DNA from: an uncultured Candidatus Saccharibacteria bacterium
GTDB lineage: Bacteria > Patescibacteriota > JAQUNI01
NCBI GenBank assembly: GCA_964555185.1
Contig: CAZKRD010000002.1
Coordinates: forward strand, 245,268-309,267
DNA length: 64,000 nucleotides
Reading direction: 5' to 3'
In this document: positions 7,061 through 34,149 of the stretch, one piece after another
How positions within the stretch are numbered: position 1 is the stretch's first letter
Layout of the letters: each line of letters begins with the position of its first letter
Program-made: the position numbers and the translations under genes
The notes under the pieces: model-generated
Database searches by the model: none
Told to the model about the DNA's origin: nothing
The model's input: the letters and a program-made list of their open reading frames with translations, nothing else

Positions 7061-7190
7061 GTCATTGCGAGGAGCGACCCCGAGCCCGCCGAGGGGAAGC
7101 GACGAAGCAATCTCCTTGAAAAAGGTATTGCTGCTCTACGAGATTGCTTTGGTCACCTCACCCCGAAGGGCAGGCTCCCTCGCAATGACA
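7061..7190. repeat. MITE-like palindromic element (family A), terminal inverted repeats GTCATTGCGAGGAGCGAC ... CCTCGCAATGACA with an internal hairpin (GCAATCTC/GAGATTGC)
   Basis: Seen directly in the sequence. Related copies lie at 22768-22921 and 34044-34149. GC-rich in an AT-rich background. Sits between paralogs 6 and 5. Confidence 0.7.
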
Positions 7191-7346
7191 ACGGGATTGT
7201 TATTTTCTCTCCAATTGCATAACATAACCCCAGTTATAACAGGTGGAGTTACGCGGTTCAGGTGACTTATCTTTAACTCTAAAATATTTTAAAAGCATCC
7301 ATTTGTCTTTTTCCCAATTAAAATAGGTCCATTCTTTATCCATCGG

Positions 7347-8039
7347 CTAAATCTCTTTTGCTTTTTTATAGGCCCTTTTTACTCTCGGATCTTTAATGTA
7401 TTTTTTTAATTCCGCGAAAAAAAGATTAGTGCCGATTTTGTAATTCTTGTTTAAATTCGAATAAAAAGTGCCCCTAGTCCAAAAATCTTCAAAATTCTGC
7501 ACGCTGTAACCTTTTTCTAAATACTCTTTTAAAAGCACATTAAAATTATGGGTTTTGCTCTCTGGGAAGTCAGCATAGAAGCGGGTCAGAAAATAGCCAT
7601 TAAACTTTAAGAGTCTATGTGCTTTTTTAAAAAACACAGGCTGGTTAGCTCTTAATACATTTTCCAAGATATAGTCGCCAAACAGAACATCATATTCGTT
7701 TTCTCTTAAAGGTGCGGAGAGCCAATTGCTTTTCACCCAAATCTCTTTATCTGTTTCCTTTTTATTGTGCATTAATTCTGTCATCGCGATAATCATCTCT
7801 AAATTAGAATCAACAATTGTTACTTTTACTTTAGGATAGCACGCCAGAAGATCACGGATTTCTGGTGTCGCGCCAAAGACCAAAGCCTTAGGACTCTTTT
7901 TCCCTTTAATTGCTTCTTTTAAATATTTTTCATAATCCTGAATGTTTTTGCGGCAAGGCCTGGTGGGATGCTTTAGTTTTTTCCACATCTTAGCCCATTC
8001 CTTCCATGGTTCAATGAATTTTTCTCGCTTTTTGGACAT
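7347..8039 (-). CDS. Class I SAM-MTase-fold protein, paralog 6 of 6 (shorter; lacks the C-terminal P-x-Y-x-LKK segment)
   Basis: 'ALVFGATPEIRDLL', 'VTIVDSN', 'YDVLFGDYI', 'RLLKFNGYFL'. N-terminal 'EPWKEWAKMWKKLKHPTRP...YEKY'. 230 aa versus 271-327 aa for the others. Confidence 0.5.
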   Translation of the reverse strand: MSKKREKFIEPWKEWAKMWKKLKHPTRPCRKNIQDYEKYLKEAIKGKKSPKALVFGATPEIRDLLACYPKVKVTIVDSNLEMIIAMTELMHNKKETDKEIWVKSNWLSAPLRENEYDVLFGDYILENVLRANQPVFFKKAHRLLKFNGYFLTRFYADFPESKTHNFNVLLKEYLEKGYSVQNFEDFWTRGTFYSNLNKNYKIGTNLFFAELKKYIKDPRVKRAYKKAKEI

Positions 8040-8511
8040 AAATTCACTTTAAGAACATATTTTTAATGAATTGTACTAATTAAAACCCTCATTTGATGGG
8101 AATTAAAGCTTTATGCCTTTTATCTTGGCCTATGTGTACAAATACTCTATAGTCGGAGAAACTTGGAAGAAGTCCTGTGAAGTCACAACGCACTTGTCAT
8201 TCACGTGAAAAAGCGGGAATCAGAGTATTCTTGCTCTAAAACCTGGATCTCCGATCAAGTCGGAGATGACAAATGACCTACGTTTGCTTATGAAGATGAC
8301 AACTAAAGGCTATGGAACCAACAAGCACAATAACTAGCACAATCCATATTTTTATAATAAAATTGTATCAAATTTGAGCGATAAAATAAAGGTTTGGTAA
8401 AAATTTATCAGGATATAAAAGTTGACGAAACAATGAAAAAGAGTTATCTTTATAATGAAATGCTGGATAACACGAAACGAAAACACAACCAAAGAGAGGA
8501 GATGACGATAA

Positions 8512-8751
8512 ATGAAGGAAGAGTCACAAGCCGTTTTGTTTATTATGTTGTTTATCTCGGGGATATTTTATCTTGTCGCGATGACCTTCCTTTATCCCAT
8601 TGAAGTCATCCAAGAAAAAAGGATGAGGCACTGCTACAAAAAGAGGCACAGTAAACAGGAGTCTGGTTGGGAAGACTGCTGTAATAAATCTTGCCTCGGA
8701 GCCTGCAACGCTCTCCGGGAAAGGGATTGTCTGGCAAATTTAGAACAGTGA
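8512..8751 (+). CDS. Small membrane protein with a Cys-rich C-terminal tail (6 Cys in ~36 aa)
   Basis: RBS GAGAGGAG ~10 nt upstream of the ATG. One predicted TM helix 'VLFIMLFISGIFYLVAMTFLY'. C-terminus 'HCYKKRHSKQESGWEDCCNKSCLGACNALRERDC'. A rho-independent terminator-like hairpin lies downstream (~8838-8862). Confidence 0.4.
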   Translation: MKEESQAVLFIMLFISGIFYLVAMTFLYPIEVIQEKRMRHCYKKRHSKQESGWEDCCNKSCLGACNALRERDCLANLEQ

Positions 8752-8932
8752 GCAAGAAATGGCGATAAAGAAGCGCTGGGCTCTCTGGAGTTCTATTATC
8801 GCTATGGATAAAGCTTCCCCCACAAGAGGTTCGAAAAACCTCTTTTTTTATATCAAGTATTTTTAACATTGAAAATAGAAAATAAAAAAAAGTTGCAGGG
8901 ATTGCTACAACTAAAGTAGAAATATATTCCAC

Positions 8933-9196
8933 TTAAGATTCCTCTTGTATCTCAAATTTTGTCCCTTGCACACAGTAACTAATTAATCTTTGCCCTCTTG
9001 GAACCCCTTTGCGGCGTATTTTTATCCGAAGAGACAAATAGCCAGGAATATATCGAAATTCTTCTATTCTCACTGGAGGTTCAGCGGGATCAGAACAAAA
9101 AGGTATAACCACTACCAAACAATTCTTTAACGCTTTATTTAATCTGTCTGCCTCCGCTTGAGTAATCTCTTTTATCCCAAAAACCTGATTAGACAT
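8933..9196 (-). CDS. Hypothetical 87-aa protein
   Basis: Strong RBS AAGGAGGA 5 nt before the ATG. No recognisable motif. Lies between the Cys-rich peptide gene and the subtilase. Confidence 0.45.
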   Translation of the reverse strand: MSNQVFGIKEITQAEADRLNKALKNCLVVVIPFCSDPAEPPVRIEEFRYIPGYLSLRIKIRRKGVPRGQRLISYCVQGTKFEIQEES

Positions 9197-9349
9197 ATGA
9201 TCCTCCTTGCGTGTTGTTTTTCTTGAAAAAATTAGACAAAATAAAAAAGATCAAATTAAAAAACTAAATTAATATCTTTTAATCTTGGTTGAAAATCCAA
9301 CTTTGTCAAATTTAACCCTCAAGATGAAAAGTTAATATAATAACAGTTC

Positions 9350-10627
9350 CTAGGGAGCGATCGGCAAACCAAAACCAGTGGCTGTGTCGTCACCAGTAGT
9401 CCAAATCTCTGCTGCTATGCCGTGCAAATAATTCCGAGTGTTATTGGCTGACCCTTGCCAGAGCTTAGCAGCCAGACCTGAAACATGCGGGGTGGCCATT
9501 GAAGTTCCAGACATATAGGCATAGCAACCATTTTTATAAGCAGACTCCACTGAAACTCCTGGAGTTGCTAGTTCCACTTCCCTTTCTTCGACTAGATAAT
9601 CGCCATCATTGACTCCGCGTGAACTCCAATCCGGAACTGCTTCACTGGAATTGATCGCACCAACAGCAACCGCCTTGTAATAAGCAGCCGGATAATTAAT
9701 ACTGTCGTAAGTTGGTCCATCATTGCCAGCCGCAACCACAACTAATACTCCTTTACTTACTGCATAATCAATGGCCGCAAGCTCTTGAGAATCAGGATCA
9801 TCACCGCCATAACTCATTGAAATAATATTTGCACCATGGTCAGCAGCATAACGAATACCAGCAGCAGAATCATCACCATAACAAGAACCACGCCGGTCAC
9901 AGACCTTAACTGTCATTAATTTTGCTTCTGGCGCTACACCATAAATCCCTAAACCATCTTCGCCGCTATTAGCTAAAATTGTGCCCGAAACATGAGTGCC
10001 ATGGCCGTGCGCGTCTTCACAACTCTTTCTATCTGGTTTGAAGTGAGTGACCTTACTCACACAATCCGTAAGATTACCCATCAAGTCCAAATGATCTTGA
10101 TCCACACCTGTGTCTAAAACCGCTACTGTAACTCCATTACCTCCTTCCCCGCCATTCACTTTATTGATACCCCATGGCTTTTGATCGCCGGGCAAACAAG
10201 TTCTATCTGGTTCAGGATCAGGATCAGAAGGACAATCTTGGGGACAACGCTTGGGCTCATTACCCTGACAGACGCTATCACCACAGACAGGCTTACCAGT
10301 GATCTTGCGGATGCCTACCTGTCTAACCTCTACCCCTAAATCCCTCAAAGATTGAACTTGCTTTTTGGTCAACATTGTTGAAAACGCTCCTGGAAATTCT
10401 TGATTGACACCAAAAAGCGTTTTCAAAACTGGATTCTCTGAACTAATATAATGAGGCTCTGGTGTTAATTCCCAACTATCACCAATCACTGGCGAGTTTG
10501 CAGGTGCTATTGCTTCTTCTTTGGCCTCCTCTGATGCTGGGATCAGGAAGCCCTTTACTTGAATTGCTCCAGAAAAAACTAAAATCCCTGCTACTAAGAT
10601 TCCTAATCCAATTTTAATTTTCTTCAT
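9350..10627 (-). CDS. Secreted subtilisin-like serine protease (S8 family)
   Basis: Catalytic triad motifs in order: 'VAVLDTGVD' (Asp), 'HGHGTHVSGT' (His), 'GTSMATPHVSG' (Ser). N-terminal signal peptide 'MKKIKIGLGILVAGILVFSGA'. Cys-rich insert 'CGDSVCQGNEPKRCPQDCPSD'. Confidence 0.85.
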   Translation of the reverse strand: MKKIKIGLGILVAGILVFSGAIQVKGFLIPASEEAKEEAIAPANSPVIGDSWELTPEPHYISSENPVLKTLFGVNQEFPGAFSTMLTKKQVQSLRDLGVEVRQVGIRKITGKPVCGDSVCQGNEPKRCPQDCPSDPDPEPDRTCLPGDQKPWGINKVNGGEGGNGVTVAVLDTGVDQDHLDLMGNLTDCVSKVTHFKPDRKSCEDAHGHGTHVSGTILANSGEDGLGIYGVAPEAKLMTVKVCDRRGSCYGDDSAAGIRYAADHGANIISMSYGGDDPDSQELAAIDYAVSKGVLVVVAAGNDGPTYDSINYPAAYYKAVAVGAINSSEAVPDWSSRGVNDGDYLVEEREVELATPGVSVESAYKNGCYAYMSGTSMATPHVSGLAAKLWQGSANNTRNYLHGIAAEIWTTGDDTATGFGLPIAP

Positions 10628-10688
10628 TTATTTACTCACCTCCTCGCTTTTATGTCTTTTATATTATTTTAAAACAAATTCGAACAAA

Positions 10689-10872
10689 ATGAAAGGCAAA
10701 GTGTGCCTGCACTCTGAGGCTTTGTCCTCCTTCGCCCTGACGAGCTTCAGAGGACACCCCTTCTTTCTTAGTCAGACAAATTATTGTTTGTTTTTAGAGT
10801 GCTGTGCACTCCGAAGCTCCAAACAAAGTGAGGAGCGAAGATGTGTTTGCACACCGAAGCCTTGGCGAAGGT
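10689..10872. repeat. GC-rich imperfect long palindrome (family B motifs CCGAAGCCTTGGCG / GAGCTTC(A/G)GAGG) abutting the 3' end of tRNA-Ala
   Basis: Left and right arms are imperfect reverse complements. Shares CGCCAAGGCTTCGG-type cores with 20811-20887, 32713-32850 and 55706-55762. Confidence 0.55.
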
Positions 10873-10873
10873 G

Positions 10874-10946
10874 TGGACCTGGGGAGAATCGAACTCCCTA
10901 CCTCAGCAATGCGAATGCTGCGCTCTACCAGATGAGCTACAGGCCC
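10874..10946 (-). tRNA. tRNA-Ala (anticodon CGC)
   Basis: Manual fold: acceptor GGGCCUG with a G3:U70 pair (Ala identity), D-arm GCUC/GAGC, anticodon loop UUCGCAU, T-arm GGGAG-UUCGAUU-CUCCC, discriminator A. No encoded CCA. Confidence 0.85.
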
Positions 10947-11216
10947 GTTTTTTAAATTCTCAATTCTCAATTCTCAATTTTAAAAACAATTTTAATGTTT
11001 TAATGTTGAATTTTCAAAAAATTTCGAGGATATAAGGATTTCTCAAAAACGATTTACTAATTTATTATAGAACAAACCATTAAATTAAGGAAATTCCTTG
11101 CTCAAATAAAAAATTTGTTGTAGGCTTAAATGTACTTCTAACTCTCAAGTTTGTTCTTTACCCATTCTTAATTCTAAAAACCAGAAACATTCAACCAAAC
11201 GAGAGGAGATTGAAAA

Positions 11217-12371: not shown

Positions 12372-12396
12372 ACGCCACCTTGGCGTTTTTTTTATT
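12372..12396 (+). terminator. Rho-independent terminator (stem AACGCCA..TGGCGTT + T8)
   Basis: Seen directly after the DegT stop codon. Confidence 0.6.
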
Positions 12397-12448
12397 ATTA
12401 AAAAGAACCCTAAAATAAAGAGGGTTCTGAAAGAATGAACTGCTCTAT

Positions 12449-13213: not shown

Positions 13214-13290
13214 AGCCTAAAACCCCCTTTCTTCTAATAAAGAGTTTTGTATTGAGGAATAAAAAAAGAACAAACAACTTAAGCCAAAAG

Positions 13291-14660: not shown

Positions 14661-14684
14661 AAAATAAAAAAAGAGGCCGTTATT

Positions 14685-16895: not shown

Positions 16896-19473
16896 ATTTT
16901 GTCAAACCGCGCTTGTGCTTCATCTTAATCACCCTTTTTTTGCCATTCTTTGGCTTTGATTTTGCTTTGAGTTTGGTCTCTTGGACCCCTTTCTTTTTGG
17001 ACAGTGTTTTGTCTTGTTTGCTCAAAGTCAAAGCATAATCTAGGACGCCGTCCATATTGGCAACCGGAATAAACTTCAGCTCCTTGCGCGCCTCTTTAGG
17101 CACCTCGGTTAGATCTTTTTTATTATCAGCCGGCATAATAATTATTTTCGCGCCAGCTCTGTGCGCGGCCAAAGCTTTTTCTTTTAAGCCCCCGATCTCC
17201 AAAACATTGCCGCGGAGCGTAACCTCGCCGGTCATTGTAATTGCTCTTTTTACTGGGCGGCGAGCAATCGCCGAGACCAGCGCGGTTGCAATCGCAATCC
17301 CGGCTGATGGTCCGTCTTTAGGGATTGCGCCGGCCGGCACATGAACATGAATATCATTCTTTTGGAAAAACTTCTCATCAATACCCAAAACCTTGGCCCG
17401 ACTGCGCGCGTAAGACAAAGCGGCCTGGGCTGATTCCTTCATCACATCCCCGAGTTGCCCGGTCAAAATCAAATCACCCTTACCGCTCATTGTGGTCGCT
17501 TCAATGGACAACACCTCTCCACCAGCCTGGGTCCAAGCAAGCCCTGTAACCACGCCGATCTCGTTCTTCTTTTCGGTCAAAGCAAGAGCAAACCTGGAAG
17601 GTCCTAGGTATTTCGCCAAATCCGCCAAGGTAATCCGGTAGGACTTTTTCTTGCCGTTTCCTGCTAGCTTGCGCACGACCTTGCGGCACAAGGTGGCGAG
17701 CTCGCGCTCCAAATTCCTGACCCCCGCCTCGCGGGTATACTCATTGATTACTGTCCGTACAACTGCATCGCTGATATACAAATCTTTTCTTTTTAAACCG
17801 TGGGATTTATATAATTTAGGCAAGAGATGTTTTTTGGCAATCCGCAGCTTTTCCTCTTCGGTATAACCCGGAAAATGGATCACTTCCATCCGGTCGCGCA
17901 AAGCAGGCGGGATTGTATCCAAGACATTAGCGGTGGTGATAAACATTACTTTGGATAAATCAAAAGGCACTTCTAAATAATGATCAGAAAATTCACTGTT
18001 TTGTTCTGGATCCAAGGCCTCTAAAAGGGCAGAAGTGGGATCGCCGCGAAAATCCTTGCCCACCTTGTCAATCTCATCAAGCATAAACACCGGATTCTTC
18101 TCGGTTGCCGTGTTAATCCCCTGGACGATCCGGCCGGGCAGAGCGCCAACATAGGTGCGGCGGTGCCCCCTGATCTCTGCTTCATCCCGGATCCCCCCTA
18201 AACTCATTCGGAAAAATTTTCGGCGCATGGCGCGCGCAATTGATTTGCCGATTGAGGTCTTGCCAGTGCCTGGCGGCCCGACAAAACAGAGAATCGGCCC
18301 CCTGATCTTACCTACCATCTTATGGACCGCTAAATACTCCAAAACCCTTTCTTTCACTTTTCTCAAACCAAAATGATCTTGGTTTAAAATCCGACTCGCT
18401 TTTTTAATATCAATCTGGCTCTTGCTTTCTCGTGACCAAGGCAGATCAATCAACCAATCTAAATAAGTACGGAGATAAGAAACCTCGGGAGAAAAAGAAG
18501 GCATTTTCTCCATCCGGGCCAGCTCTTTTAAGGCCACCTTTTCCACATTGGAGGGCATCTTTGTTTTTTTGATCTGAGTCTCTAGGTCTTCGCCTTTTTC
18601 TCCTTCACTGTCTCCCAACTCCTTCTGAATACTCTTCAACTGCTCACGTAAAAACATCTCTTTCTGCATTTTGCCAAGTTCCTTGTGGGTCTTTTTCTCA
18701 ATCTTCTTACCTGTTTCCAAGATTTGCTTCTCATGAGCGATGTGTTTGGAGAGTAGTTCCAGCCGTTTTTGGAGATCAGTACTCTCTAAAATCTCCTGCC
18801 GCTTTTCTAAAGATAAATCCAGATTAAAAACCATCAAATCAATCATCTGATCCGGGGTTTCGGCGTTGAAAATCGCAACCAGAACATCCAGAGGCACCAT
18901 TTTGCCAATCGAAACACACTCCTTGAATTGGGCTAAAATATTCCTGATCAGCGCCTTGACTGCCAAGGTTTCCTTTTCTTTGGTTTCTAAAATTTTAGTT
19001 CTGACCTTAAAATAGGGGGACTCTTGGATAAACCCAAGAACACGCGCCCTCTTAATCCCCTCGACAATAATCTTGACTGAATTATCAGGCAAATTTAAAT
19101 CCTGGGCAATCATCGCCACCGTGCCTACCTTGTAAAGGTTTTGAGGGGTTATTGGTCTTGCTTTACCTTCTTCTTCAACTTCTTCTTTCTTATTTTTAAC
19201 TTGTTTCTCTGAAACAAAAATAGCTAAACGGTCGCTTTTCACGGCCTCTTGGACAGCGATCGCGCTTTTTTGATCGCGGATAATCAAAGGCAGGACCAGA
19301 CGGGGAAAAACCACCAGATCCCGAACGGCAACTAAGGGCAACTCTTTCTTTATTTTAGGTTTGGGAGGCTTTTGGGCGACAATTTCCCTGTTGCCTCCAA
19401 ATGGAAAATCCAGCTCTTTTGCCTCATCTTGATCATCCTCTTGTTCTTCTGGTCTATTGTTTTGCTTAATCAT
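16864..19473 (-). CDS. lon: ATP-dependent protease La (Lon)
   Basis: Lon N-domain 'LPLVAVRDLVVFPRLVLPLIIRDQKS'. Walker A 'GPPGTGKTSIGKSIA'. Catalytic Ser 'PKDGPSAGIAIATALVS'. Unusual Lys-rich ~50-aa C-terminal tail. Confidence 0.9.
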   Translation of the reverse strand: MIKQNNRPEEQEDDQDEAKELDFPFGGNREIVAQKPPKPKIKKELPLVAVRDLVVFPRLVLPLIIRDQKSAIAVQEAVKSDRLAIFVSEKQVKNKKEEVEEEGKARPITPQNLYKVGTVAMIAQDLNLPDNSVKIIVEGIKRARVLGFIQESPYFKVRTKILETKEKETLAVKALIRNILAQFKECVSIGKMVPLDVLVAIFNAETPDQMIDLMVFNLDLSLEKRQEILESTDLQKRLELLSKHIAHEKQILETGKKIEKKTHKELGKMQKEMFLREQLKSIQKELGDSEGEKGEDLETQIKKTKMPSNVEKVALKELARMEKMPSFSPEVSYLRTYLDWLIDLPWSRESKSQIDIKKASRILNQDHFGLRKVKERVLEYLAVHKMVGKIRGPILCFVGPPGTGKTSIGKSIARAMRRKFFRMSLGGIRDEAEIRGHRRTYVGALPGRIVQGINTATEKNPVFMLDEIDKVGKDFRGDPTSALLEALDPEQNSEFSDHYLEVPFDLSKVMFITTANVLDTIPPALRDRMEVIHFPGYTEEEKLRIAKKHLLPKLYKSHGLKRKDLYISDAVVRTVINEYTREAGVRNLERELATLCRKVVRKLAGNGKKKSYRITLADLAKYLGPSRFALALTEKKNEIGVVTGLAWTQAGGEVLSIEATTMSGKGDLILTGQLGDVMKESAQAALSYARSRAKVLGIDEKFFQKNDIHVHVPAGAIPKDGPSAGIAIATALVSAIARRPVKRAITMTGEVTLRGNVLEIGGLKEKALAAHRAGAKIIIMPADNKKDLTEVPKEARKELKFIPVANMDGVLDYALTLSKQDKTLSKKKGVQETKLKAKSKPKNGKKRVIKMKHKRGLTKYESEQKRIHN

Positions 19474-19786
19474 TTTTGTTTTTATTCTAAAATCACAAAA
19501 TACATCTAAATCTCACGAATTTCATAATTTAGAAATCTTTATTTAAAAATTTAATCTACACCTTACCTCTAATGATAGCATTGTTTTAGAAAATCAAAAA
19601 GGCCCTGGTTAATGTCAGTGGGCATAATAAATAATTGTCAAGAAAAAATCAAAATCTTGTCTTTTTTAATCCAAGGGTTTTCTTGATTTTTTTGCTTTTG
19701 ACCACCCTTTCAGCGATAAACCGCGATGCGGTGCGATAACGGGTGTTCTTTTTTTTGTATTGATGACGTTTATAAGGCACAAAAAA

Positions 19787-20605
19787 TTATTTCACAATAA
19801 TCATTGCCTTCCTGCCTCGCTCAATCTCTTCCTTAGACCCAGGAAAATCATGAATCGCGTTATCTAATATGTGGTAAGGATAAAAATAATTCTCGCCGCG
19901 CCGGGTTCCCGGGTCATTAGTGATAAAACCACTCTCATTAAAACCGGTTAAAACCAAATTATGATAGAGGGGCCCAGGCGAGGTGAAATTAGGATTGCCC
20001 AAAAGCCTGCCTGCGGCTGGAACAATCACCGGATAGCCAGCAACGATTCTCTCTTTTAAATCATCTATCGTAATATCATAAACAACCTCCACATTCTGAT
20101 AACCATAATAATCTTGGGCAAGCTTAGCGGTTTCTTTGACATCCGTATCCTTATAATCGCCATAACGTGACATTTGAAAATCAATTAGGCGATCAAGTTC
20201 CTCTCTCATCCTCTCTTTGTTTAAATCTTTTTTCTGCCAGAAATAATGGACAATCACCAGGCTTGCCTCTTCGCACGACTCTTCGTCCCGCTCGTCCCAA
20301 AGAGCATATGGCGACTGCGGAGCAAAAGGAACTTCAAGTAAAAAATCGGGGGGAATCTCCTGATCTTTAGACTCTGACACCTCTAGTTCTTGAAGTGAGT
20401 CACCACCTTCTAAAGCTAGATTTTCTGGCTCTAAATCAACAACTGTTGTCTGCTCCTGGTTCTCTGGGAGATAATTAATATTTCTCTGTTCCCCTTGTGC
20501 CTGTTTAAATTCCACCTCAAATCCGCTTAGGTAAAAAATCAATGCGATCAGCAAAATAAAAAAAGGGGTGAAGAGAAACAAAAATTTTCTCAATGACAAC
20601 GCCAT
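19787..20605 (-). CDS. Membrane-anchored protein with a C39-like (papain-fold) cysteine peptidase domain
   Basis: N-terminal TM 'FLFLFTPFFILLIALIFYL'. Putative nucleophile region 'CEEASLVIVHYFW' and downstream His ('YHILDNAIHDF') resemble Peptidase_C39_2 proteins. ATG at 20605 is preferred over the upstream TTG. Confidence 0.4.
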   Translation of the reverse strand: MALSLRKFLFLFTPFFILLIALIFYLSGFEVEFKQAQGEQRNINYLPENQEQTTVVDLEPENLALEGGDSLQELEVSESKDQEIPPDFLLEVPFAPQSPYALWDERDEESCEEASLVIVHYFWQKKDLNKERMREELDRLIDFQMSRYGDYKDTDVKETAKLAQDYYGYQNVEVVYDITIDDLKERIVAGYPVIVPAAGRLLGNPNFTSPGPLYHNLVLTGFNESGFITNDPGTRRGENYFYPYHILDNAIHDFPGSKEEIERGRKAMIIVK

Positions 20606-20810
20606 AAAGTTACCCCTGGTCAAACTTCTGAACAAGCTCGTTAATAAGCCTTTTTTGTTCCTTTAAATCCAAAACTTCGCGGCGGATCCGCGCTTTTTCT
20701 TTACGGATGAATTGCTTGATTCCTTTAGATAATCTTTTTGATCTATTCATTACCATCATCATAACATAACCCCCTGAAAAATAACAAAAAAATTAATTTT
20801 AATACCAAAA

Positions 20811-20887
20811 TCTTCCGCCTACGCTCACGAGCTTCGGCGGACAGGTCCGCTCTCGCGCCAAGGCTTCGGTGGACAGACAAACAGTGG
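20811..20887. repeat. GC-rich repeat (family B) with direct repeats GAGCTTCGGCGGACAG / AGGCTTCGGTGGACAG
   Basis: Seen in the sequence. Shares CGCCAAGGCTTCGG with 10855-10872. Confidence 0.5.
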
Positions 20888-20982
20888 ATAACTCTCTATT
20901 CCTTATTTTAAAAATGTGCTATAGTGATATGATTTAAAAAATCTTGAATAATTTATATCAAAAAAGAAGGGAGGTGATAATC

Positions 20983-21765
20983 TTGGACAACAATACCTTA
21001 TTTAATGAAGAGGACGACAAAAAAGACAAGAAAGAAGATGAAATGGATGAATTAGACCTCGAGGATGATGATGAAGACATCATCCCGATCGAGGAAACAG
21101 GCGGAGGCGGCCGCAAGATTCTCTGGACGATTGTGGTGTTGATTATTATCGGCTTGGGAATTTACTCTTTTGCTAAAAGAGAACAAATCCGAGAAGGCCT
21201 ACAAACACCAGAAGAGGAAACCGGAGAAATCGGCGAAGCCGCCTCCGACACCCTAGAAGAATTCACTTGGGAAGGTGAAGAAGGAGAAACCACGATAGAA
21301 GAAGAAGGGGAACAAATCGTGATCAAAGAATCTGAAATGCCCGAGCTTGAAGAATTCACGATCACAGATGAAGGAGAAGCGATTGCCGGACAAGAAGAAG
21401 CAACCACTCCTGAAATAGAAAAGCCAGAAGAGATTATTCTTGAACCCAAAGTTGCAAGCGATGACGAAAAAATTACGGCCACGGCTCAACCCGGTGAAGG
21501 GATCACCCATCTGGCCCGGAGAGCGCTCGCTGAATACCTAGAAAAAAATAATCTCACCGGGGAGTTGAGTGCCGAACAAAAAATATACATTGAAGACTAT
21601 CTCCAAAATCGGACAGGGACCGAAATGCTTGCTTTGGGCGAAACCCGCACCTTCAGCAATGCCTTGATCGCAGAAGCAGTTGATGCTTCAAAACAGCTTG
21701 ATGAAAAACAACTCAAAAACTTAGAAAAATACGTTGTGATAGTATTTGGTTCAGCTGGCTCTTAA
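20983..21765 (+). CDS. Highly acidic single-pass membrane protein (hypothetical)
   Basis: RBS GGGAGGTGA 6 nt before the TTG at 20983. Asp/Glu-rich N-terminus, TM 'ILWTIVVLIIIGLGIYSFA', E-rich ectodomain. The start codon is uncertain. Confidence 0.4.
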   Translation: MDNNTLFNEEDDKKDKKEDEMDELDLEDDDEDIIPIEETGGGGRKILWTIVVLIIIGLGIYSFAKREQIREGLQTPEEETGEIGEAASDTLEEFTWEGEEGETTIEEEGEQIVIKESEMPELEEFTITDEGEAIAGQEEATTPEIEKPEEIILEPKVASDDEKITATAQPGEGITHLARRALAEYLEKNNLTGELSAEQKIYIEDYLQNRTGTEMLALGETRTFSNALIAEAVDASKQLDEKQLKNLEKYVVIVFGSAGS

Positions 21766-21997
21766 AAAAGCAAAATAAAAATTCAAAACAAAAATAAAAA
21801 GCAAACAAAAACAAAATAAAAAGACCGCCTCTTTTCAAGAAAAAGCCAAGCATGCAGCTTTCTAAAAAAGGGCGGTTTTATTTTCTAGAATCGAACACCT
21901 AATCTATGCATGATCCAGCAAAAAGCAAAAAGTGAAATAATTGCTCCAAAAATTCCAAAGACGAGATGCCTAAAACCTATCTTATTCTCAGCTGTTT

Positions 21998-22645
21998 TCA
22001 TTCTATTCTCCTCCCAAGTTGTCCTTTTGCATAAAGCGAAAATTTCCGCAAAGACTGGAAGATGTCAATTTCTGGCACACCAAGACTTTGAAAGTCTGCA
22101 GAATCTAAATCACCTGTACAAATCACTATCGACTGTATACCCACAGTAATTGCTTCTCGATAATGTTTGATCGAATCGGTAACAAAAAGCGCGTGGGCTG
22201 GTCTATTTGATAATCCCGTTTGCTCTAAGGCAGAAATAAACAATTCACTTTTAGAATCGTTCTGTTTGCCTTTTCCATTAACAATGACTGTAAACCAATG
22301 CTTAAGAATTCCGAGTCTGCGCATATGACGCTCCAGGATTCCTTGCTTACGATTGGTTACGATTCCTAAATCAAAGCCCATATCTCGAAGCTCCTGAATC
22401 GCTCGGAATGTGTCAGGAACTAGATCTCTCGCGCTATTACTGCGTCTAAATCTGCCGAAAAAAGGTAGAGAAGTCATAGCTTCCTGCCGAAAAAGATAAA
22501 ACACAAATTCCGCTTTCTCTATCGTCTCGAGAAATCCCAAGCTTCTGGCTTTCTGAAAATAAAGAGAGACCTTTAAGGGTAGAGTCCTCCGCAAAGGACC
22601 ATCAAAGTCAAGCAGAATCAAAACTAAAGACCCGATATCAGGCAT
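21998..22645 (-). CDS. HAD-superfamily hydrolase
   Basis: Motif I 'LILLDFDGPL'. Motif II 'GIVTNRKQ'. Motif IV region 'LFVTDSIKHYREA'. Confidence 0.65.
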   Translation of the reverse strand: MPDIGSLVLILLDFDGPLRRTLPLKVSLYFQKARSLGFLETIEKAEFVFYLFRQEAMTSLPFFGRFRRSNSARDLVPDTFRAIQELRDMGFDLGIVTNRKQGILERHMRRLGILKHWFTVIVNGKGKQNDSKSELFISALEQTGLSNRPAHALFVTDSIKHYREAITVGIQSIVICTGDLDSADFQSLGVPEIDIFQSLRKFSLYAKGQLGRRIE

Positions 22646-22767
22646 AGAATCACTCCCCCCGGTCCGTCTTAAATTTTAAACAAAGAACACAAGCTAAAGC
22701 CACTATAAACCGTATAAAAAATATTAAAAAAAGTCAATAAAAAATACGCGAACCAAAACCCCCTCCT

Positions 22768-22921
22768 GTCATTGCGAGCGACCGGAGGGAGCGAAGCCAT
22801 CCTACGGGTGGTCACCCGTAGGGTGACAATTTCGTGAAAGTCTTATTTGACTCTTAGGAATGAGGTTGCTTCAGTTCACAGCGAGCTGTCTCCCCCTTCG
22901 GGGGAACTCCTCGCAATGACA
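22768..22921. repeat. MITE-like palindromic element (family A copy 2) carrying an internal CCTACGGGTGGTCACCCGTAGGGTGAC hairpin
   Basis: Terminal repeats GTCATTGCGAGCGACC ... CCTCGCAATGAC. Compare 7061-7190. Confidence 0.65.
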
Positions 22922-22967
22922 CTAGAGTCTTTGGATCACGCTAAATGGTCTCGATTTATCCCAAATC

Positions 22968-24074
22968 TCACTCCGGCTTTTTTATCCTGCCCAAAACAAC
23001 ACCAAGTACAATCAAGGCGATAGCGACAACCACTACCGCGCCGCTCTCAATCATCTTATACAAAGTAAATTTGGAAACTAAATCACTGAAAATTGAGCTA
23101 ATCCCGTCAAATATTGCCGGATCTACTGCTTTCTCTAGTTGGGGGCCAGCTAATTTCAAAAAACTGGAAGGTTTCGAAAAACGAGAAAAAAGAAGCAAAA
23201 CAACAGAGCTAAGTAAAACTAATAGGCCCGGTACTAAAATCGTTGTTCCGACTTTTTTGAAAACAGAAGAAAGCGGCTTCCAGACTAGAAGGCCAATGAA
23301 AATCAACAAAACAAACACAGCGGCAGTAGCAATATAAAGGATAAAAAAGGCAAGATGAGTATAATCGCGCACTTTGCTTAAAGTTGCAAGCGGCGATTCT
23401 GCGTCTCCTGCTTTTTTAGGAACGGATTCTTTTTGCCCTAAATTTAAAAGGTCAATTTCGTCAGGCAAACCTTCAAACATTTTGTCAAGCACCCCTTCCT
23501 GTTCAAAAGCCTCGCTGAATTTTTCCACATCCTCTTGGCTCATCCCCGGAGGCAAACAAAATATATTCTGATCACCCTGCTGTAGTTTCCTAACTTGATC
23601 TTCAGTACATTTAGGCATATCACTAAAAGCTTCTCCAATCAATTCGCCAAAAGAAGATCCTAGACTCTGCTTGACCTCTTCTAAAGAAATAGTGAGTTCT
23701 AGCTCCTCTTCGTCAGAGTAAAACCAAACAAAAAAATCATCAACCAAGCCACCTAACTCTTCTTCCATCCAGGTTTGGGGAAAAGCCTGCTCCACAATCC
23801 TGTTTAAGGCATCAGGAGAAATCCCAGGTAAAGGAGAAGCGCTCTGGCCCGGGCTTTTGTCGCCCTGCGCAGCTGTTTTAAACATACCACTTAAAAAAGA
23901 ACTTAAAGCTTGGGTGATCTGCCCCTCTTCAATCAATGCTTTATAGACCGCGGGCCGCAAAAAAACAAGCTTAAAATTGTGGATATAAAGGACAGTAGTA
24001 AAACTCAAACAGAAAAGAATGGCCAGAAGAGTAGCGAGTAGTTTGCGACACATAATTTTTAAATCAAAATGCAA
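22968..24074 (-). CDS. Hypothetical membrane protein
   Basis: N-terminal and C-terminal hydrophobic helices. No family recognised. Confidence 0.35.
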   Translation of the reverse strand: MHFDLKIMCRKLLATLLAILFCLSFTTVLYIHNFKLVFLRPAVYKALIEEGQITQALSSFLSGMFKTAAQGDKSPGQSASPLPGISPDALNRIVEQAFPQTWMEEELGGLVDDFFVWFYSDEEELELTISLEEVKQSLGSSFGELIGEAFSDMPKCTEDQVRKLQQGDQNIFCLPPGMSQEDVEKFSEAFEQEGVLDKMFEGLPDEIDLLNLGQKESVPKKAGDAESPLATLSKVRDYTHLAFFILYIATAAVFVLLIFIGLLVWKPLSSVFKKVGTTILVPGLLVLLSSVVLLLFSRFSKPSSFLKLAGPQLEKAVDPAIFDGISSIFSDLVSKFTLYKMIESGAVVVVAIALIVLGVVLGRIKKPE

Positions 24075-28309: not shown

Positions 28310-28334
28310 AAAAAATCAAAAGTGGAACTCCTTG

Positions 28335-29375: not shown

Positions 29376-29397
29376 TTATTTGAAAAAATAGACTACC

Positions 29398-30090
29398 CTA
29401 ACCTAAATAATATGTTCCTATAATTCTTCTAGTCTTTGGGTTGCACACCAAATTACAAACAACCAAATTAACTTCTCTTATTGAAAATTTTCCAATCGAA
29501 ATATTCTCTAGTTCTTTAATCTTGACAATCAATTCTCTTTTTGGTCGTCCTTTAAAACGACACAAGGTAATGTTGCCAAAAAATACTTCGTCAGAAAAAT
29601 ATTTCTTGTCATCAGATAAACCAATATCTTTCAATCCAGCATCTAAGGTTTGAACCAATCTTCCTAATGTTTCATTAGAATATCCGATCAAAGAAACGGT
29701 TTTAGGAAATAACATAAGATTCTGTAAATCAAAACTGAAAGAACTAAATTTAGGGGTTACTTCTCGGAACAATTTATCTGCCTTCATCACATCGTCTTTG
29801 CTAAACCGTGGCGGCTTGTGGATAATTCGAATATTCTTAATTGTTAAGTGCAATGATTCGAGGGGATAATAATAATGGTCAGGATCTATCTTCTTTAAGG
29901 GTTCAATTATATCTCGGGAAATCTTCTGGCCAATCTTGGAAGGAATAAACGTTAATGAAGAAAGACAAAGCCTATCGTCATTCTGATCCACATAATCACT
30001 CTGAATCTGGACTCCATTTTTTTGACTACTAATAATAGACTTAATTTTCTGAATAAGCTTTTTTTGCTTTTTACTATAATTGTTTTTCAT
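29398..30090 (-). CDS. Hypothetical protein
   Basis: One 'LHLTIK' H-x-T motif but no convincing second one, so not called a 2H phosphoesterase. Confidence 0.35.
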   Translation of the reverse strand: MKNNYSKKQKKLIQKIKSIISSQKNGVQIQSDYVDQNDDRLCLSSLTFIPSKIGQKISRDIIEPLKKIDPDHYYYPLESLHLTIKNIRIIHKPPRFSKDDVMKADKLFREVTPKFSSFSFDLQNLMLFPKTVSLIGYSNETLGRLVQTLDAGLKDIGLSDDKKYFSDEVFFGNITLCRFKGRPKRELIVKIKELENISIGKFSIREVNLVVCNLVCNPKTRRIIGTYYLG

Positions 30091-30107
30091 TCTTTTAATA
30101 AGTCTGC

Positions 30108-31016
30108 TTATCTTTCTCTTAAACGTTTTATTCGCTCGCCGGGTGAAGGATGGGTTAGGAAAAGACGATTAAACCAATTTGTCCCTTGCCGGCCGCGAAA
30201 GGGAGAGATGATAAAAAGATGGGCATTGTAATTGCGGGCAACTTTCATTGAAGCGGGATCTCTCGAAACTTTTTCTAAAGCGCTGGCTAACCCTTCAGGA
30301 TACCGCGTCAATAAAGCTCCAGTAGCATCAGCTAGAAACTCGCGCTTGCGCGAAATCGCCAGCCGAATCAAGGTCGCGGCAATCGGCGCTAAAATCGCGG
30401 TCGCAATTCCGATCAACATAAAAATCGCTCCCACCTGTCCTCCGCGCGAATCGCGCGATCTTCTGCTGCGGCCTCCGCCAAAAAAACTAAAACGTAAAAA
30501 AATATTAGAGGCGATCGCGATCACACCAGCTAGAACTACAGCGACAGTCTGTAAAAGCGTATCCCGGTTTTTGATATGAGCAATCTCATGGGCAATCACG
30601 CCTTGAAGCTCTAAACGGCGCAATTTCGCTAAAAGCCCGGTGGTTACCGCGATCACCGCGCGTTTTTCATTGCGGCCCGTGGCAAAAGCATTGGGCTGGG
30701 ACTCGTTTAAAATATAGATACGAGGCATTGGCATTCCAGCGGTAATGCATAAATTCTCAACAGTTCGATACAGTTCCCGCGCGTCCTTTTCGGCAATCGG
30801 CTTAGCCCGAGTTAAAGCCAAGATTATTTTATCCGAATACCAATAACTTAAAAAACTGGTAATCACACTGAATAGAACCGCGAAAATCAAAATAAATTGA
30901 TTTTCCAGAATATAGCCAAAAAGCCAGCCAAAACCAATAATTAGGACTAAAAAAACCGTCATTAAAAACCAAGTCCTGCGAATATTAGAATCTTTGTGGG
31001 TATAAAGCGTGGCCAT
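30108..31016 (-). CDS. htpX: Zinc metalloprotease HtpX (M48)
   Basis: Two N-terminal TMs. 'VIAHEIAHIKNRD' HEXXH zinc-binding motif. Confidence 0.85.
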   Translation of the reverse strand: MATLYTHKDSNIRRTWFLMTVFLVLIIGFGWLFGYILENQFILIFAVLFSVITSFLSYWYSDKIILALTRAKPIAEKDARELYRTVENLCITAGMPMPRIYILNESQPNAFATGRNEKRAVIAVTTGLLAKLRRLELQGVIAHEIAHIKNRDTLLQTVAVVLAGVIAIASNIFLRFSFFGGGRSRRSRDSRGGQVGAIFMLIGIATAILAPIAATLIRLAISRKREFLADATGALLTRYPEGLASALEKVSRDPASMKVARNYNAHLFIISPFRGRQGTNWFNRLFLTHPSPGERIKRLRER

Positions 31017-31250
31017 ATATTATAATTCTAACAAAAAACCGCCTGCCTCGCTAGTCCTTGCCTGTTGTGGATTTGTGCAAAATTTAAAAAAGGGCGGCCA
31101 CTTGGGGCCGCCCCTACAAACATTTTTTCTAAAACAAGTAAGTATTTACAAAAATCAAAATTTAAGCTATGTTGGCTGGAGCTGCACTTTGCGGCTCAAC
31201 TGTTGGTTCTTAAAACTCAACCCAAATATCCAAACAAGGAGGAAATAGCA

Positions 31251-32669
31251 ATGGATATGAAAGTAACTCTAGGGGTAATAATGGGCAACCGGGGATTCTT
31301 TCCTAACCATCTGGTTGAGGAAGGCCGGAAAGAGGTTTTGAAAGTGCTGGCGGATGAAGGTATAGATGTGGTGGCTCTTACGCCGGAAGATACGAACTTG
31401 GGCAGCGTGGAAACACTTGAGGAAGCGGTGAAGTGCGCGGAGCTATTCAAGAAAAACCGAGAGAAGATTCAGGGCGTCCTGGTTAGTCTCCCCAATTTCG
31501 GCGATGAACGCGGCGTTGCCAACACCTTGAAGATGGCGAATCTGGATGTTCCGGTGCTCGTGCAGGCATTCCCGGATGCTGTAGACGCGATGGATCTTGC
31601 TAACCGTAGGGACAGCTTCTGCGGCAAGATGTCAATTTGCAATAACTTAAGACAATACGGCATCGACTATTCTCTCACCGCACTGCATACGGTATCCCCT
31701 GATTCTAATGCGTTCAAGGAAGATCTCCGGTGGTTTACCGGTGTATGTCGAGTTGTCGGGGGGCTACGAACTGCCCGAATAGGCGCGATTGGTGCGCGAC
31801 CTTCAGCTTTTAACACAGTCAGATATAGCGAAAAACTCCTGCAAGCATCTGGCATCACTGTCGAAACTATTGACCTGTCGGACATATTCGGCCTCGCGTG
31901 GAAGCTGGATGACGATGATTCTGCGGTCAAGAGCAAACTTGATAGTGTCAAATCCTATATCAATGCAGAAGGCGTGCCGACGAAATCCTTCGTCAAAATG
32001 GCGAAGCTGGCTGTGGTGATCGAGAATTGGATGGAGGAGAATCGTCTGGACGCCAGCGCGGTTCAGTGCTGGACTTCCGTGGAAGAGAACTACGGTATCG
32101 TGCCATGCACGATCATGAGCATGATGACTGAAGGGCTGATGCCTTCAGCATGTGAGGTGGATGTCTGCGGCGCAGTCGCAATGTACGCCCTTCAACTGGC
32201 ATCCGGCGTTCCGTCAGCGCTTGCTGACTGGAACAATAACTACGGCGATGATCCGGACAAGTGTGTCGCCTTCCACTGCTCAAACTGGCCCAGGAGCTTA
32301 TTTCGAAAAGTTCCAGATATGGTTTATCAGGACATAATTGCCGGTACTGTAGGGGCAAAAAACGCGTACGGAACGTGTGTAGGACGAGCTGCAGCAGGAC
32401 CGATGACTTTCGCGTGTGTGTCCACGGATGATACGGTAGGAAAGATACGGACATACATAGGCGATGGTTTATTCATAAATGATCCGCTGGATACCTTTGG
32501 CGGACACGGTGTGCTGAAAATCGAAAACATGCAGGAGTTGCTTCGCTTCATTTGCAAGAACGGGTTCGAGCATCACGTTGCTATCAATCCATCTTTTCAG
32601 GCGGATGTACTCTACGAAGCCTTCGACAACTATTTGGATTGGGATGTCTACTACCACGGGCAAGAATAA
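31251..32669 (+). CDS. L-fucose/L-arabinose isomerase-family protein (COG2407-like), in a high-GC island
   Basis: RBS AGGAGG 8 nt before the ATG at 31251. N-terminal 'KVTLGVIMGNRGFFP' and C-terminal 'HHVAINPSFQADVLYEAFDNYLDWDVYY' resemble FucI/AraA-type sugar isomerases. G+C is visibly higher than in neighbouring genes. Confidence 0.55.
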   Translation: MDMKVTLGVIMGNRGFFPNHLVEEGRKEVLKVLADEGIDVVALTPEDTNLGSVETLEEAVKCAELFKKNREKIQGVLVSLPNFGDERGVANTLKMANLDVPVLVQAFPDAVDAMDLANRRDSFCGKMSICNNLRQYGIDYSLTALHTVSPDSNAFKEDLRWFTGVCRVVGGLRTARIGAIGARPSAFNTVRYSEKLLQASGITVETIDLSDIFGLAWKLDDDDSAVKSKLDSVKSYINAEGVPTKSFVKMAKLAVVIENWMEENRLDASAVQCWTSVEENYGIVPCTIMSMMTEGLMPSACEVDVCGAVAMYALQLASGVPSALADWNNNYGDDPDKCVAFHCSNWPRSLFRKVPDMVYQDIIAGTVGAKNAYGTCVGRAAAGPMTFACVSTDDTVGKIRTYIGDGLFINDPLDTFGGHGVLKIENMQELLRFICKNGFEHHVAINPSFQADVLYEAFDNYLDWDVYYHGQE

Positions 32670-32683
32670 TTATCACTTGCCAA

Positions 32684-32713
32684 CCCCGCAAATCAAAACG
32701 CGGGTTTTTTTTA
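32684..32713 (+). terminator. Rho-independent terminator (CCCGC..GCGGG + T9)
   Basis: Directly after the isomerase stop codon. Confidence 0.55.
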
Positions 32714-32850
32714 TAATTTATTGTCATTACCCGTAGGGGCAACCCTTGTGGTTGCCCGTTATTGGTAAACCAAAAACAGGGCGACCACCCACCTACGCCA
32801 AGGCTCTGGCGGGCGGGCACGGGGTCGCCCCTACGAATTGTTCCATCCAA
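32713..32850. repeat. GC-rich palindromic element with CCGTAGGGGC(A/G)ACC inverted termini and a CGCCAAGGCTCTGGCG core
   Basis: Left 'CATTACCCGTAGGGGCAACC', right 'GGGGTCGCCCCTACGAATTG'. Related to the hairpin inside the A2 element at 22800-22830. Confidence 0.55.
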
Positions 32851-32947
32851 AAACAAAAATTTCAAATTTGTTTATAATTCGCAGTGAGGAGAAAGTGAAA
32901 TTCCTTTTCACTTTATCCGAACAAGAATTTCAAGCTTGCTTATTTCC

Positions 32948-33508
32948 CTAAAACACAAAAGAAAACAAGAGAGCTAAGATTGCTAAAACAAAAGAAATAA
33001 TTGCCCACAAAAGATCCTTATTCTTTCTTATCACTTTGGCATAAACTAAAGCTGTAATTCCAAGCAAAACCGCAGGAATCACTGCTCTTCTTGTTGTATT
33101 GTAAAACAAAAGTTTAGCCGGAGAATTTGGAGTATAACCAAATACTTTAAAAAGAAGCAAAACCCAAGCACTAAAAACAGACACAAGCAGACTCAGAAAA
33201 GTAAAATAACTCAATCTCTTCTTATCGCTTTTTTCTATCTTTTTAGGAGCCTCTTTTCTAACCAGTGGCGGGGCCAGTGGTTTTTTCGTCTCTTTCTTAT
33301 AAACCTTCTTTTCTGGAATTCCTTGTTCCGGCTTTTTCTTCCTGCGCGCCTTGCGATAAATCCATCGGATTAAAAAAAACATACCCAAGATAAACAACAA
33401 AAACAGAGGAAAAAGCACGCCGCGCGTATCTCGGATGAAAAGTTGAAAACTCAAAACCAAAAACAAAACCATTGAAAAAGCTAACCAAATCACTTTTTTC
33501 TTTCTCAT
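32948..33508 (-). CDS. Hypothetical membrane protein with a Lys-rich linker
   Basis: Hydrophobic N- and C-terminal segments. 'RKARRKKKPEQG...KKETKKP' basic stretch. Confidence 0.35.
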   Translation of the reverse strand: MRKKKVIWLAFSMVLFLVLSFQLFIRDTRGVLFPLFLLFILGMFFLIRWIYRKARRKKKPEQGIPEKKVYKKETKKPLAPPLVRKEAPKKIEKSDKKRLSYFTFLSLLVSVFSAWVLLLFKVFGYTPNSPAKLLFYNTTRRAVIPAVLLGITALVYAKVIRKNKDLLWAIISFVLAILALLFSFVF

Positions 33509-33522
33509 ATCTTGATTTTTAT

Positions 33523-33981
33523 TTAATTATCTGAACTTTTTCTAAATGATTTATAGATAAAAATTCCAGATAAAATCGCAATTAGGGCATAATAGGTTAA
33601 AATCAAATACCATCGCGGCGTGCCATACCAAGAAGTTTCGGGAAACCATCTTTTAAAAAGAAGGATTACCCAAGATAAAGCGCCCCAGCTATGGCAAAGC
33701 AGAAGAAACAAAACGAAGATTAAATTTAAAGACCTCTTTAAGACAAGAACCAAAAGCAGACAGAACAAAAGATAACCAAAAATAGCCACAATAAAAATTG
33801 CAGGATGAATCTTTAAAAAATACTCAGCAATCGGATTGAGTTCGTTGACTTGGGTATAATCACGCCAATAATTCTGATTTTGGCCAACCAAAGTTAAGCC
33901 AAAATCTAAAACAATCACAATCCCAGCCAAAATCATTAAGTATTTAGATTTAAAACCAAATCTTTCCTGATCTTGAGACAT
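33523..33981 (-). CDS. Hypothetical polytopic membrane protein
   Basis: Four predicted TM helices. No motif recognised. Confidence 0.35.
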   Translation of the reverse strand: MSQDQERFGFKSKYLMILAGIVIVLDFGLTLVGQNQNYWRDYTQVNELNPIAEYFLKIHPAIFIVAIFGYLLFCLLLVLVLKRSLNLIFVLFLLLCHSWGALSWVILLFKRWFPETSWYGTPRWYLILTYYALIAILSGIFIYKSFRKSSDN

Positions 33982-34043
33982 AAAATCCTGTTTTTTACTT
34001 TTAGTTTTTATTTTAGCCCGAATTACAGAACCATCTAGGCTGT

Positions 34044-34149
34044 CTATTAGCGAGCGACGGGAAGGAGCGAAGCAATCTCGTGAGAATCCACATAATTACT
34101 CTGTAACGAGATTGCTTCGTTCGGGCAGCAGCCCTCCCTCGCAATGACA
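34044..34149. repeat. MITE-like palindromic element (family A copy 3, left terminus degenerate)
   Basis: '...AGCGAGCGACGGGAAGGAGCGAAGCAATCTCGT ... ACGAGATTGCTTCG ... CCCTCCCTCGCAATGACA'. Perfect internal 14-bp hairpin. Confidence 0.6.

Follow-up and report, generated by a model that had tools for sequence, protein, structure and literature searches.

Inverted hairpin doublets in a Candidatus Saccharibacteria chromosome as probable members of an unnamed family of tagged palindromic repeats

Described palindromic repeats and the 3 elements of the window

The closest described relatives of the repeat analyzed here, a family of short hairpin elements (family A) with 3 copies, A1, A2, and A3, in 64 kb of the chromosome of an uncultured Candidatus Saccharibacteria bacterium (contig CAZKRD010000002.1; the whole stretch is called the window), are the repetitive extragenic palindromic (REP) sequences that carry a CGTC or TGTC tag. 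Di Nocera, De Gregorio & Rocco 2013 (PMC3733652) describe such repeats as families CGTC-1 to -4, including Neisseria dRS3 and Rickettsia RPE-4 and RPE-6, with an unpaired terminal CGTC (often TGTC; or CCTC), a stem of 8–9 bp beginning with A-T and T-A, a loop of 4–5 nt, and a 3-base 3' tail that is mostly CCA. According to the same article, dimers with the tags outward predominate, with spacers of 20–100 bp and both homo- and hetero-dimers among them; the repeats reside mostly in Alphaproteobacteria, with outliers in other phyla, have no associated transposase, and in some copies lie inside genes, where those of the 4 families read VIPAKAGI, VMPGLDPGI, VIPWLDHGI, and others. The authors also state that bulged variants may have escaped them (PMC3733652).

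We consider, with moderate confidence, that each element of family A consists of 2 REP-like hairpin units in inverted orientation, an arrangement comparable to that of bacterial interspersed mosaic elements (BIMEs) and of REP doublets forming hairpins (REPINs), and that these doublets form an unnamed family within the superfamily of palindromic repeats with a CGTC or TGTC tag. Family A is similar to the REPs, BIMEs, and REPINs of E. coli and Pseudomonas in consisting of extragenic palindromes, mostly inverted doublets that can be folded as 1 long hairpin, in the lack of target-site duplication, in the occupation of operon intergenic spacers, and in the predominance of hetero-doublets, for which the Y and Z REPs of BIMEs are the parallel. 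REPs, however, are tagged with GTAG, vary in sequence from species to species, and lie on either side of a cognate REP-associated tyrosine transposase (RAYT) gene, whereas family A has a (C/T)GTC tag and boxes that are kept across phyla, and never flanked a Y1 transposase in the loci scanned.

With bacterial miniature inverted-repeat transposable elements (MITEs), such as the Correia elements of Neisseria, family A shares a length of approximately 100–150 nt, the absence of coding capacity, bounding inverted repeats, an intergenic position, and frequent co-transcription. Unlike family A, MITEs have target-site duplications, an insertion sequence (IS) with the same ends, and fairly homogeneous copies within a genome; the Correia elements duplicate a TA target site. 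Further, the small dispersed repeats of cyanobacteria are said to form hairpins and to be nested in other repeats, a nesting like that of a 30-nt hairpin in A2, but their sequences differ from those found here. A literature search for TCATTGCGAG, CTCGCAATGAC, GCGAAGCAATC, and others returned only unrelated primer matches.

We identified 3 intergenic, GC-rich folding elements in the window, where a previous interpretation of the DNA (the sequence-only reading) had placed them, all between open reading frames (ORFs) and with GC contents of 0.58 (A1), 0.55 (A2), and 0.51 (A3) against 0.36, 0.41, and 0.35 in the respective 500-nt flanks. Element boundaries as used here include the flanking T...A, which pair with each other. 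The exact 11-mer GTCATTGCGAG occurred 5 times in the window against 0.73 expected, a count reached in 0 of 100 shuffles; it marked both termini of A1 and of A2 and the right terminus of A3. The near-identical termini described in the sequence-only reading were thus recovered at 5 of 6 ends, the left end of A3 being a decayed head, TGTCTATTAGCGAG, with two 1-nt insertions. Similarly, the shared internal hairpin of that reading, the inner inverted box GAAGCAATCTC / GAGATTGCTTC, was intact in A3 and had 1 mismatch in A1, but in A2 one arm was broken by the nested hairpin and the other was mutated. The nested hairpin itself was present as described, perfect over 10 bp and 30 nt in total. Neither the rest of the window nor the viral contigs contained another copy, and a local expansion may be all that it represents. 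Common to A1–A3 were only 2 boxes per arm, TGTCATTGCGAG and GAAGCAATCTC, with unalignable interiors, and a relaxed scan of the 64 kb detected no further credible unit beyond these 3 elements.

Both strands of A1–A3 folded well beyond shuffled sequences (z −4.9 to −7.6). With RNA parameters, the fold of the whole doublet reached −62, −71, and −48 kcal/mol in A1, A2, and A3, compared with −30, −51, and −17 kcal/mol for the separate halves, and the folding model thus predicts that in a fully single-stranded molecule the whole-doublet hairpin would be much more stable than 2 separate units.

Unit anatomy, spread, and probable insertion of family A

The unit of family A is 30–60 nt long and comprises a Y-GTC tag, the basal stem strand ATTGC, GA(G), an apical mini-hairpin, GAA, the complementary GCAAT, and a C(C/T)N tail, with GA(G) and GAA forming a purine-rich internal loop between the basal stem and the apical mini-hairpin. 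The unit can be written as YGTCATTGCGAG...GAAGCAATC, with the sister subfamilies ATTCT/AGAAT and ATTCC/GGAAT, and the canonical element of 75–90 nt reads Y GTCATTGCGAG (CGNAGC or GAGCGNAGCGAC) GAAGCAATCC – variable loop – GGATTGCTTC (...) CTCGCAATGAC R. In the doublets of the window, 2 units stand tail to tail with the tags outward, separated by an AT-rich spacer of 25–28 nt, so that a single strand can fold as 1 long hairpin. A pattern joining both boxes, applied to viral contigs and to a one-genome-per-species collection, yielded at least 120 loci in each; in the 240 family A loci analyzed, with 586 units, we counted 143 tag-outward pairs, 53 tandem pairs, 31 head-facing pairs, and 187 single units, with a median gap of 26 nt; some of the single units may have a partner too decayed for detection. 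Since many units stand alone or are paired in tandem or head to head, the building block is one arm rather than an element bounded by terminal inverted repeats. Doublets combining a short and a long arm (6 vs 12–14 nt in the middle) numbered 37, against 9 with equal arms.

The basal stem covaried between subfamilies, GC being matched by GC in 415 of 483 cases, CT by AG (ATTCT/AGAAT) in 12 of 18, and CC by GG (ATTCC/GGAAT) in 8 of 12. Compensatory changes were also identified in the apical stems, for example, from GAGCGAAGCGAC to GAACGAAGTGAC or GAATGAAATGAC, and in the structure that RNAalifold predicted from 46 unequal-armed doublets, the long hairpin together with a side hairpin, 6 of 26 pairs had compensatory changes. 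Apical segments of 17–25 nt had a median fold z of −2.9, and GNA triloops were the commonest loops. In the apical mini-hairpin GC-GNA-GC, the middle base varied freely (A 55, C 24, T 15, G 13). The oligonucleotide d(GCGNAGC) forms a DNA mini-hairpin of unusual stability, a property that favors a single-stranded DNA stage. Longer GC-rich apical hairpins (CCCCC-GAA-GGGGG, CCC-TTCG-GGG, GGGC-TGCT-GCCC) take the place of the mini-hairpin in the window copies and in prophages of Helicobacter canis, which is why the elements are GC-rich in an AT-rich genome.

All 5 intact heads of the window read TGTC. Among 56 full elements, position −1 was C in 29 and T in 24. In doublets, this pyrimidine paired with the +1 purine of the partner unit (C-G 30, T-G 8, T-A 4). 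The tails of 415 family units were mostly CCA (157), CTC (130), or CCC (44), with CTC in the window copies, and the 2 tails of a doublet pair with each other. Coordinates and composition of the individual units are given in Table 1.

Table 1. Family A doublets of the window, with their units, spacer, and nested insertion
Feature	Position (nt)	Strand	Description
Doublet A1, 131 nt	7060..7190		Between start of methyltransferase ORF 6233-7048(-) and end of methyltransferase ORF 7347-8039(-)
A1 left unit	7060..7114	+	TGTC tag, ATTGC...GCAAT basal stem, enlarged GC-rich apical part GAGCGA-CCCCGAGCCCGCCGAGGGG-AAGCGAC, CTC tail
A1 spacer, 25 nt	7115..7139		AT-rich, separates the two tails
A1 right unit	7140..7190	-	TGTC, ATTGC, GAG, apical CCC-TTCG-GGG hairpin, CAA, GCAAT, CTC
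Doublet A2, 155 nt	22767..22921		Between stop of ORF 22968-24053(-) and promoter plus start of HAD hydrolase ORF 21998-22645(-)
A2 left unit	22767..22833	+	Inner box GAAGC/AAT split by nested hairpin
A2 nested insertion, 30 nt	22798..22827		Perfect 10-bp hairpin CCTACGGGTG GT CACCCGTAGG
A2 right unit	22862..22921	-	TGTC, ATTGC, GAG, apical CCCCC-GAA-GGGGG plus second hairpin, GAA, GCAAC, CTC
Doublet A3, 109 nt	34041..34149		Divergent spacer, ORF 33523-33981(-) / ORF 34308-35105(+)
A3 left unit	34041..34079	+	Decayed head TGTCTATTAGCGAG, intact GAAGCAATCTC box
A3 right unit	34108..34149	-	TGTC, ATTGC, GAG, apical GGGC-TGCT-GCCC hairpin, GAA(C)GAA, GCAAT, CTC

The CGTC/TGTC-tagged REPs (PMC3733652) are the closest described kind, sharing with family A the Y-GTC tag and the AT start of the stem; the tail is short in both and, in family A doublets, is paired with that of the partner. 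Homo- and hetero-dimers, a prevalence in Alphaproteobacteria with members in other phyla, and copies inside genes are common to both as well. As in those repeats, tag-outward pairs are the main arrangement, with spacers in the window of the length given above, the dimer peptides reported for them show the same orientation, the excess of doublets with a short and a long arm matches the dimers as described, and no associated transposase was found across the 240 loci. The geometry stated there differs from that of family A, which has 5 contiguous Watson-Crick base pairs (ATTGC/GCAAT), an internal loop, and a separate apical hairpin of 6 to more than 40 nt, and the CTC tail of the window copies contrasts with the mostly CCA tails. 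Further, family A would read VIASEAKQS, which matches none of the intragenic peptides given for CGTC-1 to -4. Judged by the stated stem and loop geometry and by the intragenic peptides, family A would fall outside CGTC-1 to -4.

Further copies were looked for and found, with at least 120 loci in viral contigs and at least 120 in the one-genome-per-species collection, so the family is not confined to the 3 copies of the window. Among the matches listed, hosts included Alpha-, Gamma-, and Deltaproteobacteria (many of them Bradyrhizobium), Chloroflexi, Cyanobacteria, Bacteroidota, Patescibacteria, Zixibacteria, Planctomycetota, Helicobacter, and Sporomusa. Novosphingobium megaplasmids carried 40 or more copies, none of them annotated, and the Helicobacter canis prophage L324 (BK070053.1, 45.7 kb) had at least 24 units, compared with approximately 8 in a related prophage. 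In the same prophage, 3 units of a covarying subfamily with an ATCGC/GCGAT basal stem lie inside 2 giant ORFs (17770-23376 and 33949-40893), and a retron-type reverse transcriptase gene adjoins a doublet (29645-29741).

Target-site duplications, also proposed for inspection in the sequence-only reading, were absent: for each length from 2 to 9 nt, 56 complete elements gave 0–1 matches, at or below chance. An empty site was identified for A2. In 2 relatives (L333 and L334), in which the flanking protein is 80% identical and the spacer is followed downstream by the same HAD gene and promoter, the corresponding spacer measured 166–178 nt compared with 322 nt in the window. Deleting 22767-22921 (155 nt) left a window stretch of 221 nt against 220 nt in the relatives, aligned colinearly from end to end, which restored the spacer length with no leftover duplication. 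Judged from this alignment, A2 would represent the insertion (or the precise loss) of exactly the doublet, and with the orthologous site empty in 2 relatives, at least A2 behaves as a discrete insertion. The stretch downstream of A2 (22646-22766) is a conserved promoter-like sequence, TTGACT...TATACGGTTTATAGTG, common to L333 and L334, which lack A2; the insertion of A2 thus lies upstream of the likely HAD promoter and leaves it intact. The suggestion of non-autonomous mobile elements in the sequence-only reading is therefore retained as far as it concerns dispersed non-coding hairpin repeats, at least one of which behaves as a discrete insertion, and set aside as far as it implies a MITE with terminal inverted repeats.

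At other sites, related phage contigs differed by approximately 87–90 nt where an element is located, usually in the gap that separates a stop codon from the following ribosome-binding site. For A1 and A3, all contigs with identical flanking proteins belonged to the same population and carried the element or broke there, and a protein neighboring A3 had no homologue in the database searched. The H. canis prophages were also compared for empty sites, and their intergenic regions were too mosaic for precise ones.

Proposed spread, the search for a mobilizer, and alternative readings

Under the reading that we favor, a doublet would spread as a non-autonomous selfish DNA element, passing through a single-stranded hairpin intermediate that may be handled in trans by an enzyme not encoded beside it; phages would help to carry doublets between lineages, and copies landing in operon spacers would be co-transcribed and tolerated. 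Tagged inverted hairpin doublets, the lack of target duplication, and the GNA mini-hairpins together point to an intermediate of the HUH (Y1) type.

Several observations weigh against this reading. A mobilizing enzyme was not found in the scans of family A loci, where no Y1 transposase was present in 1.9 Mb covering the 240 loci. The hairpin on either side of the RAYT gene of the window is a different one, and the 80 loci with homologues of this gene (332 kb) had no true family A unit. The 2 boxes are kept across phyla, unlike classic REPs, whose sequences vary from species to species, and this could reflect a conserved role in hosts or phages. Because an exact pattern for one arm was used in collecting the loci, the invariance of the boxes in that arm is partly an ascertainment effect. 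The comparison of the A2 site with the relatives was made at approximately 80% protein identity, at which the junction is too diverged for a nucleotide-exact boundary, and a precise deletion of A2 in the relatives is a possible alternative to insertion. Finally, with unalignable interiors and a decayed A3 head, the window copies are either old or fast-evolving, and any activity in this genome need not be recent.

The search for a mobilizer was extended to the surroundings of the units. Apart from 1 IS described below, no transposase was found between or beside units in the 240 loci. We found no autonomous IS with family A ends among 71 pairs of ends 350–3000 nt apart, a search made at these pairs and not across the whole collections, and the ORFs between paired ends were ordinary genes or fragments (portal, Hsp33, PriA fragments, etc.). 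An all-against-all BLASTP comparison of 2395 ORFs located at most 1.2 kb from units revealed only phage structural proteins as recurrent, which reflects sampling. The proteins of a unit-rich H. canis prophage, including the reverse transcriptase, were rejected as partners, with only a terminase-like protein recurring in other family A loci.

A Patescibacteria contig from a metagenome-assembled genome (L168; JBBTVC010000013.1) contains, at positions 661-1727, an IS of approximately 1.07 kb with 27-nt terminal inverted repeats GGTAATTAGTACCCTAATGGTTGATGA and a 308-aa Mutator-like element (MULE/Mutator-like, MULE/IS256-like) transposase. This transposase was ruled out as the mobilizer of family A, since the IS, which lies inserted between 2 doublets, is bounded by different terminal inverted repeats of its own. 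The IS cuts off the final bases of one doublet and the initial bases of the following one, and family A repeats may thus serve as IS landing sites.

A bolder proposal, which we regard as unlikely, extends the favored reading: family A, or even the (C/T)GTC-tagged superfamily as a whole, might be a pan-bacterial, phage-borne single-stranded-DNA element whose boxes are the recognition site of a broadly conserved non-RAYT enzyme that is never encoded beside the repeat.

Among the alternatives to a selfish doublet, a cis-acting RNA survives best and is still improbable. Here, the transcribed hairpins would shield the upstream mRNA from 3' exonucleases or set the expression of neighboring genes, as for some E. 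coli REPs, which would suit the location of A1 and A2 between co-directional genes, the position of phage copies after a stop codon and ahead of the following ribosome-binding site, the very stable predicted RNA folds (−48 to −73 kcal/mol), and the compensatory changes in the stems. A3, however, is located in a divergent promoter spacer, and across the family, tandem, convergent, and divergent spacers made up 68.6%, 16.5%, and 15% of the element positions against 67.5%, 16.2%, and 16.3% of control gaps, based on crude ORF calls. Unequal-armed hetero-doublets lacked an orientation bias relative to gene direction (20 vs 14). Rfam 15 at gathering score gave no match on the window elements or on 17 loci from at least 8 lineages, and permissive scans yielded only sub-threshold matches, to models of miRNA precursors and other generic hairpins. 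A1–A3 overlap no intrinsic terminator-like site, and promoter-like matches at the 3 elements were at chance level. A terminator role was rejected, as no copy is followed by a T-run. The suggestion of structured RNA-producing repeats in the sequence-only reading consequently finds no support in these results. A cis-acting RNA would in any case account for the persistence of the elements and not for their spread; in the same way, a passive mRNA-stability effect of copies inserted in operons is possible and would explain tolerance, not spread.

It is less probable still that the doublets are REPINs in the strict sense, mobilized by the RAYT (a Y1 HUH transposase) of the window. We identified this RAYT-like gene at 51773-52456(-), 17 kb from A3, with an E. 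coli RayT probe sequence and then with Pfam (PF01797, E 3.6e-16). Such a role is in line with the proximity of the gene, the arrangement in doublets, the lack of target-site duplication, and GNA mini-hairpins of the DNA type, the last 3 of which suit HUH enzymes. The gene is flanked, however, not by family A but by inverted copies of an AT-rich hairpin AAAAGGTGTCAGGAACCTTTT, AAAAGGT-GTCAGGA-ACCTTTT, in a classic "REPtron" layout (region 51759-52487), and a third copy of this hairpin is present at 48652-48677. At least 7945 homologues were retrieved at E up to 1e-5, mostly of 224 aa and 55–90% identical, many of them on contigs of approximately 1 kb, as expected of a multi-copy element. Related flanking hairpins (AAAGGTGTCA... 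or AAATGGGGTCAG...) were found at 45 of the 80 homologue loci examined, and the 7 matches to the family A head-like 11-mer in these loci were due to chance, with no unit behind them. The different flanking hairpin and the lack of family A in the RAYT loci indicate that the window RAYT has its own repeats, and it is unlikely to mobilize family A in trans.

Very doubtful is a conserved DNA-level site, in which the boxes would be bound or cleaved by a widely conserved host or phage protein acting in recombination, replication priming, or nucleoid organization, and the copies would be kept for that purpose. The conservation of the boxes across phyla with everything between them variable, the very high density in some prophages, such as that of H. 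canis described above, and the IS between 2 doublets of the Patescibacteria contig, by which the elements can be insertion targets, would agree with such a site, but no protein family recurs beside the elements except phage structural genes, and the patchy distribution, which differs between close relatives, argues against an essential role. Least probable of all is the classic MITE named in the sequence-only reading, an IS deletion derivative moved by cut-and-paste through a DDE transposase binding 12-nt terminal inverted repeats, because the perfectly inverted termini, the size of 109–155 nt, and the presence or absence of copies between related genomes are outweighed by the missing target-site duplication, by a "terminal inverted repeat" that is the head of a self-contained hairpin unit, by the lack of a transposase ORF between paired ends (the transposase of the Patescibacteria contig belonging to its own repeats), and by the strong internal dissimilarity of the copies within the window genome.

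Neighboring features and implications

The window is bacterial chromosome with lon, dnaX, cysS, dnaB, and xseA. A1 and A2 stand between genes of the same direction; ORF 22968-24053(-) beside A2 is a gene of unknown function on the same strand as the HAD hydrolase gene. Between A1 and the methyltransferase gene 7347-8039, the public annotation contains a 47-aa ORF, 7200-7343(-), with no Pfam match, which may be a C-terminal remnant of the upstream gene or spurious. A 38-nt GC-rich inverted match (10844-10881 / 20842-20879) is 79% complementary, with one arm overlapping the 3' part of a tRNA gene (10874-10946), and may derive from a tRNA or belong to a different repeat family. Logan short-read contigs of the same population (L328 and L330/L331) start inside A2 (at approximately 22795) and 80 nt beside A3; assemblies appear to be broken by family A repeats or by the palindromes in them.

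For annotation, these results imply that A1–A3 should be masked as REP-like repeats, rather than as RNA genes or transposon relics, and that short ORFs running through the elements, such as 7065-7265(+), which starts inside A1, are likely spurious. The elements of family A are ordinary in kind and remarkable for the width of their spread and for the question of their mobilizer. They provide a clean example of an old puzzle, in which approximately 20 conserved bases are found across distant phyla and phages without a transposase of their own. If the boxes were indeed recognized by a broadly conserved non-RAYT enzyme, palindromic repeats would have a mobilization route distinct from the DDE and RAYT/IS200 systems. 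The easily searched signature together with the very wide distribution of the family would make phylogenetic profiling for the missing partner feasible.

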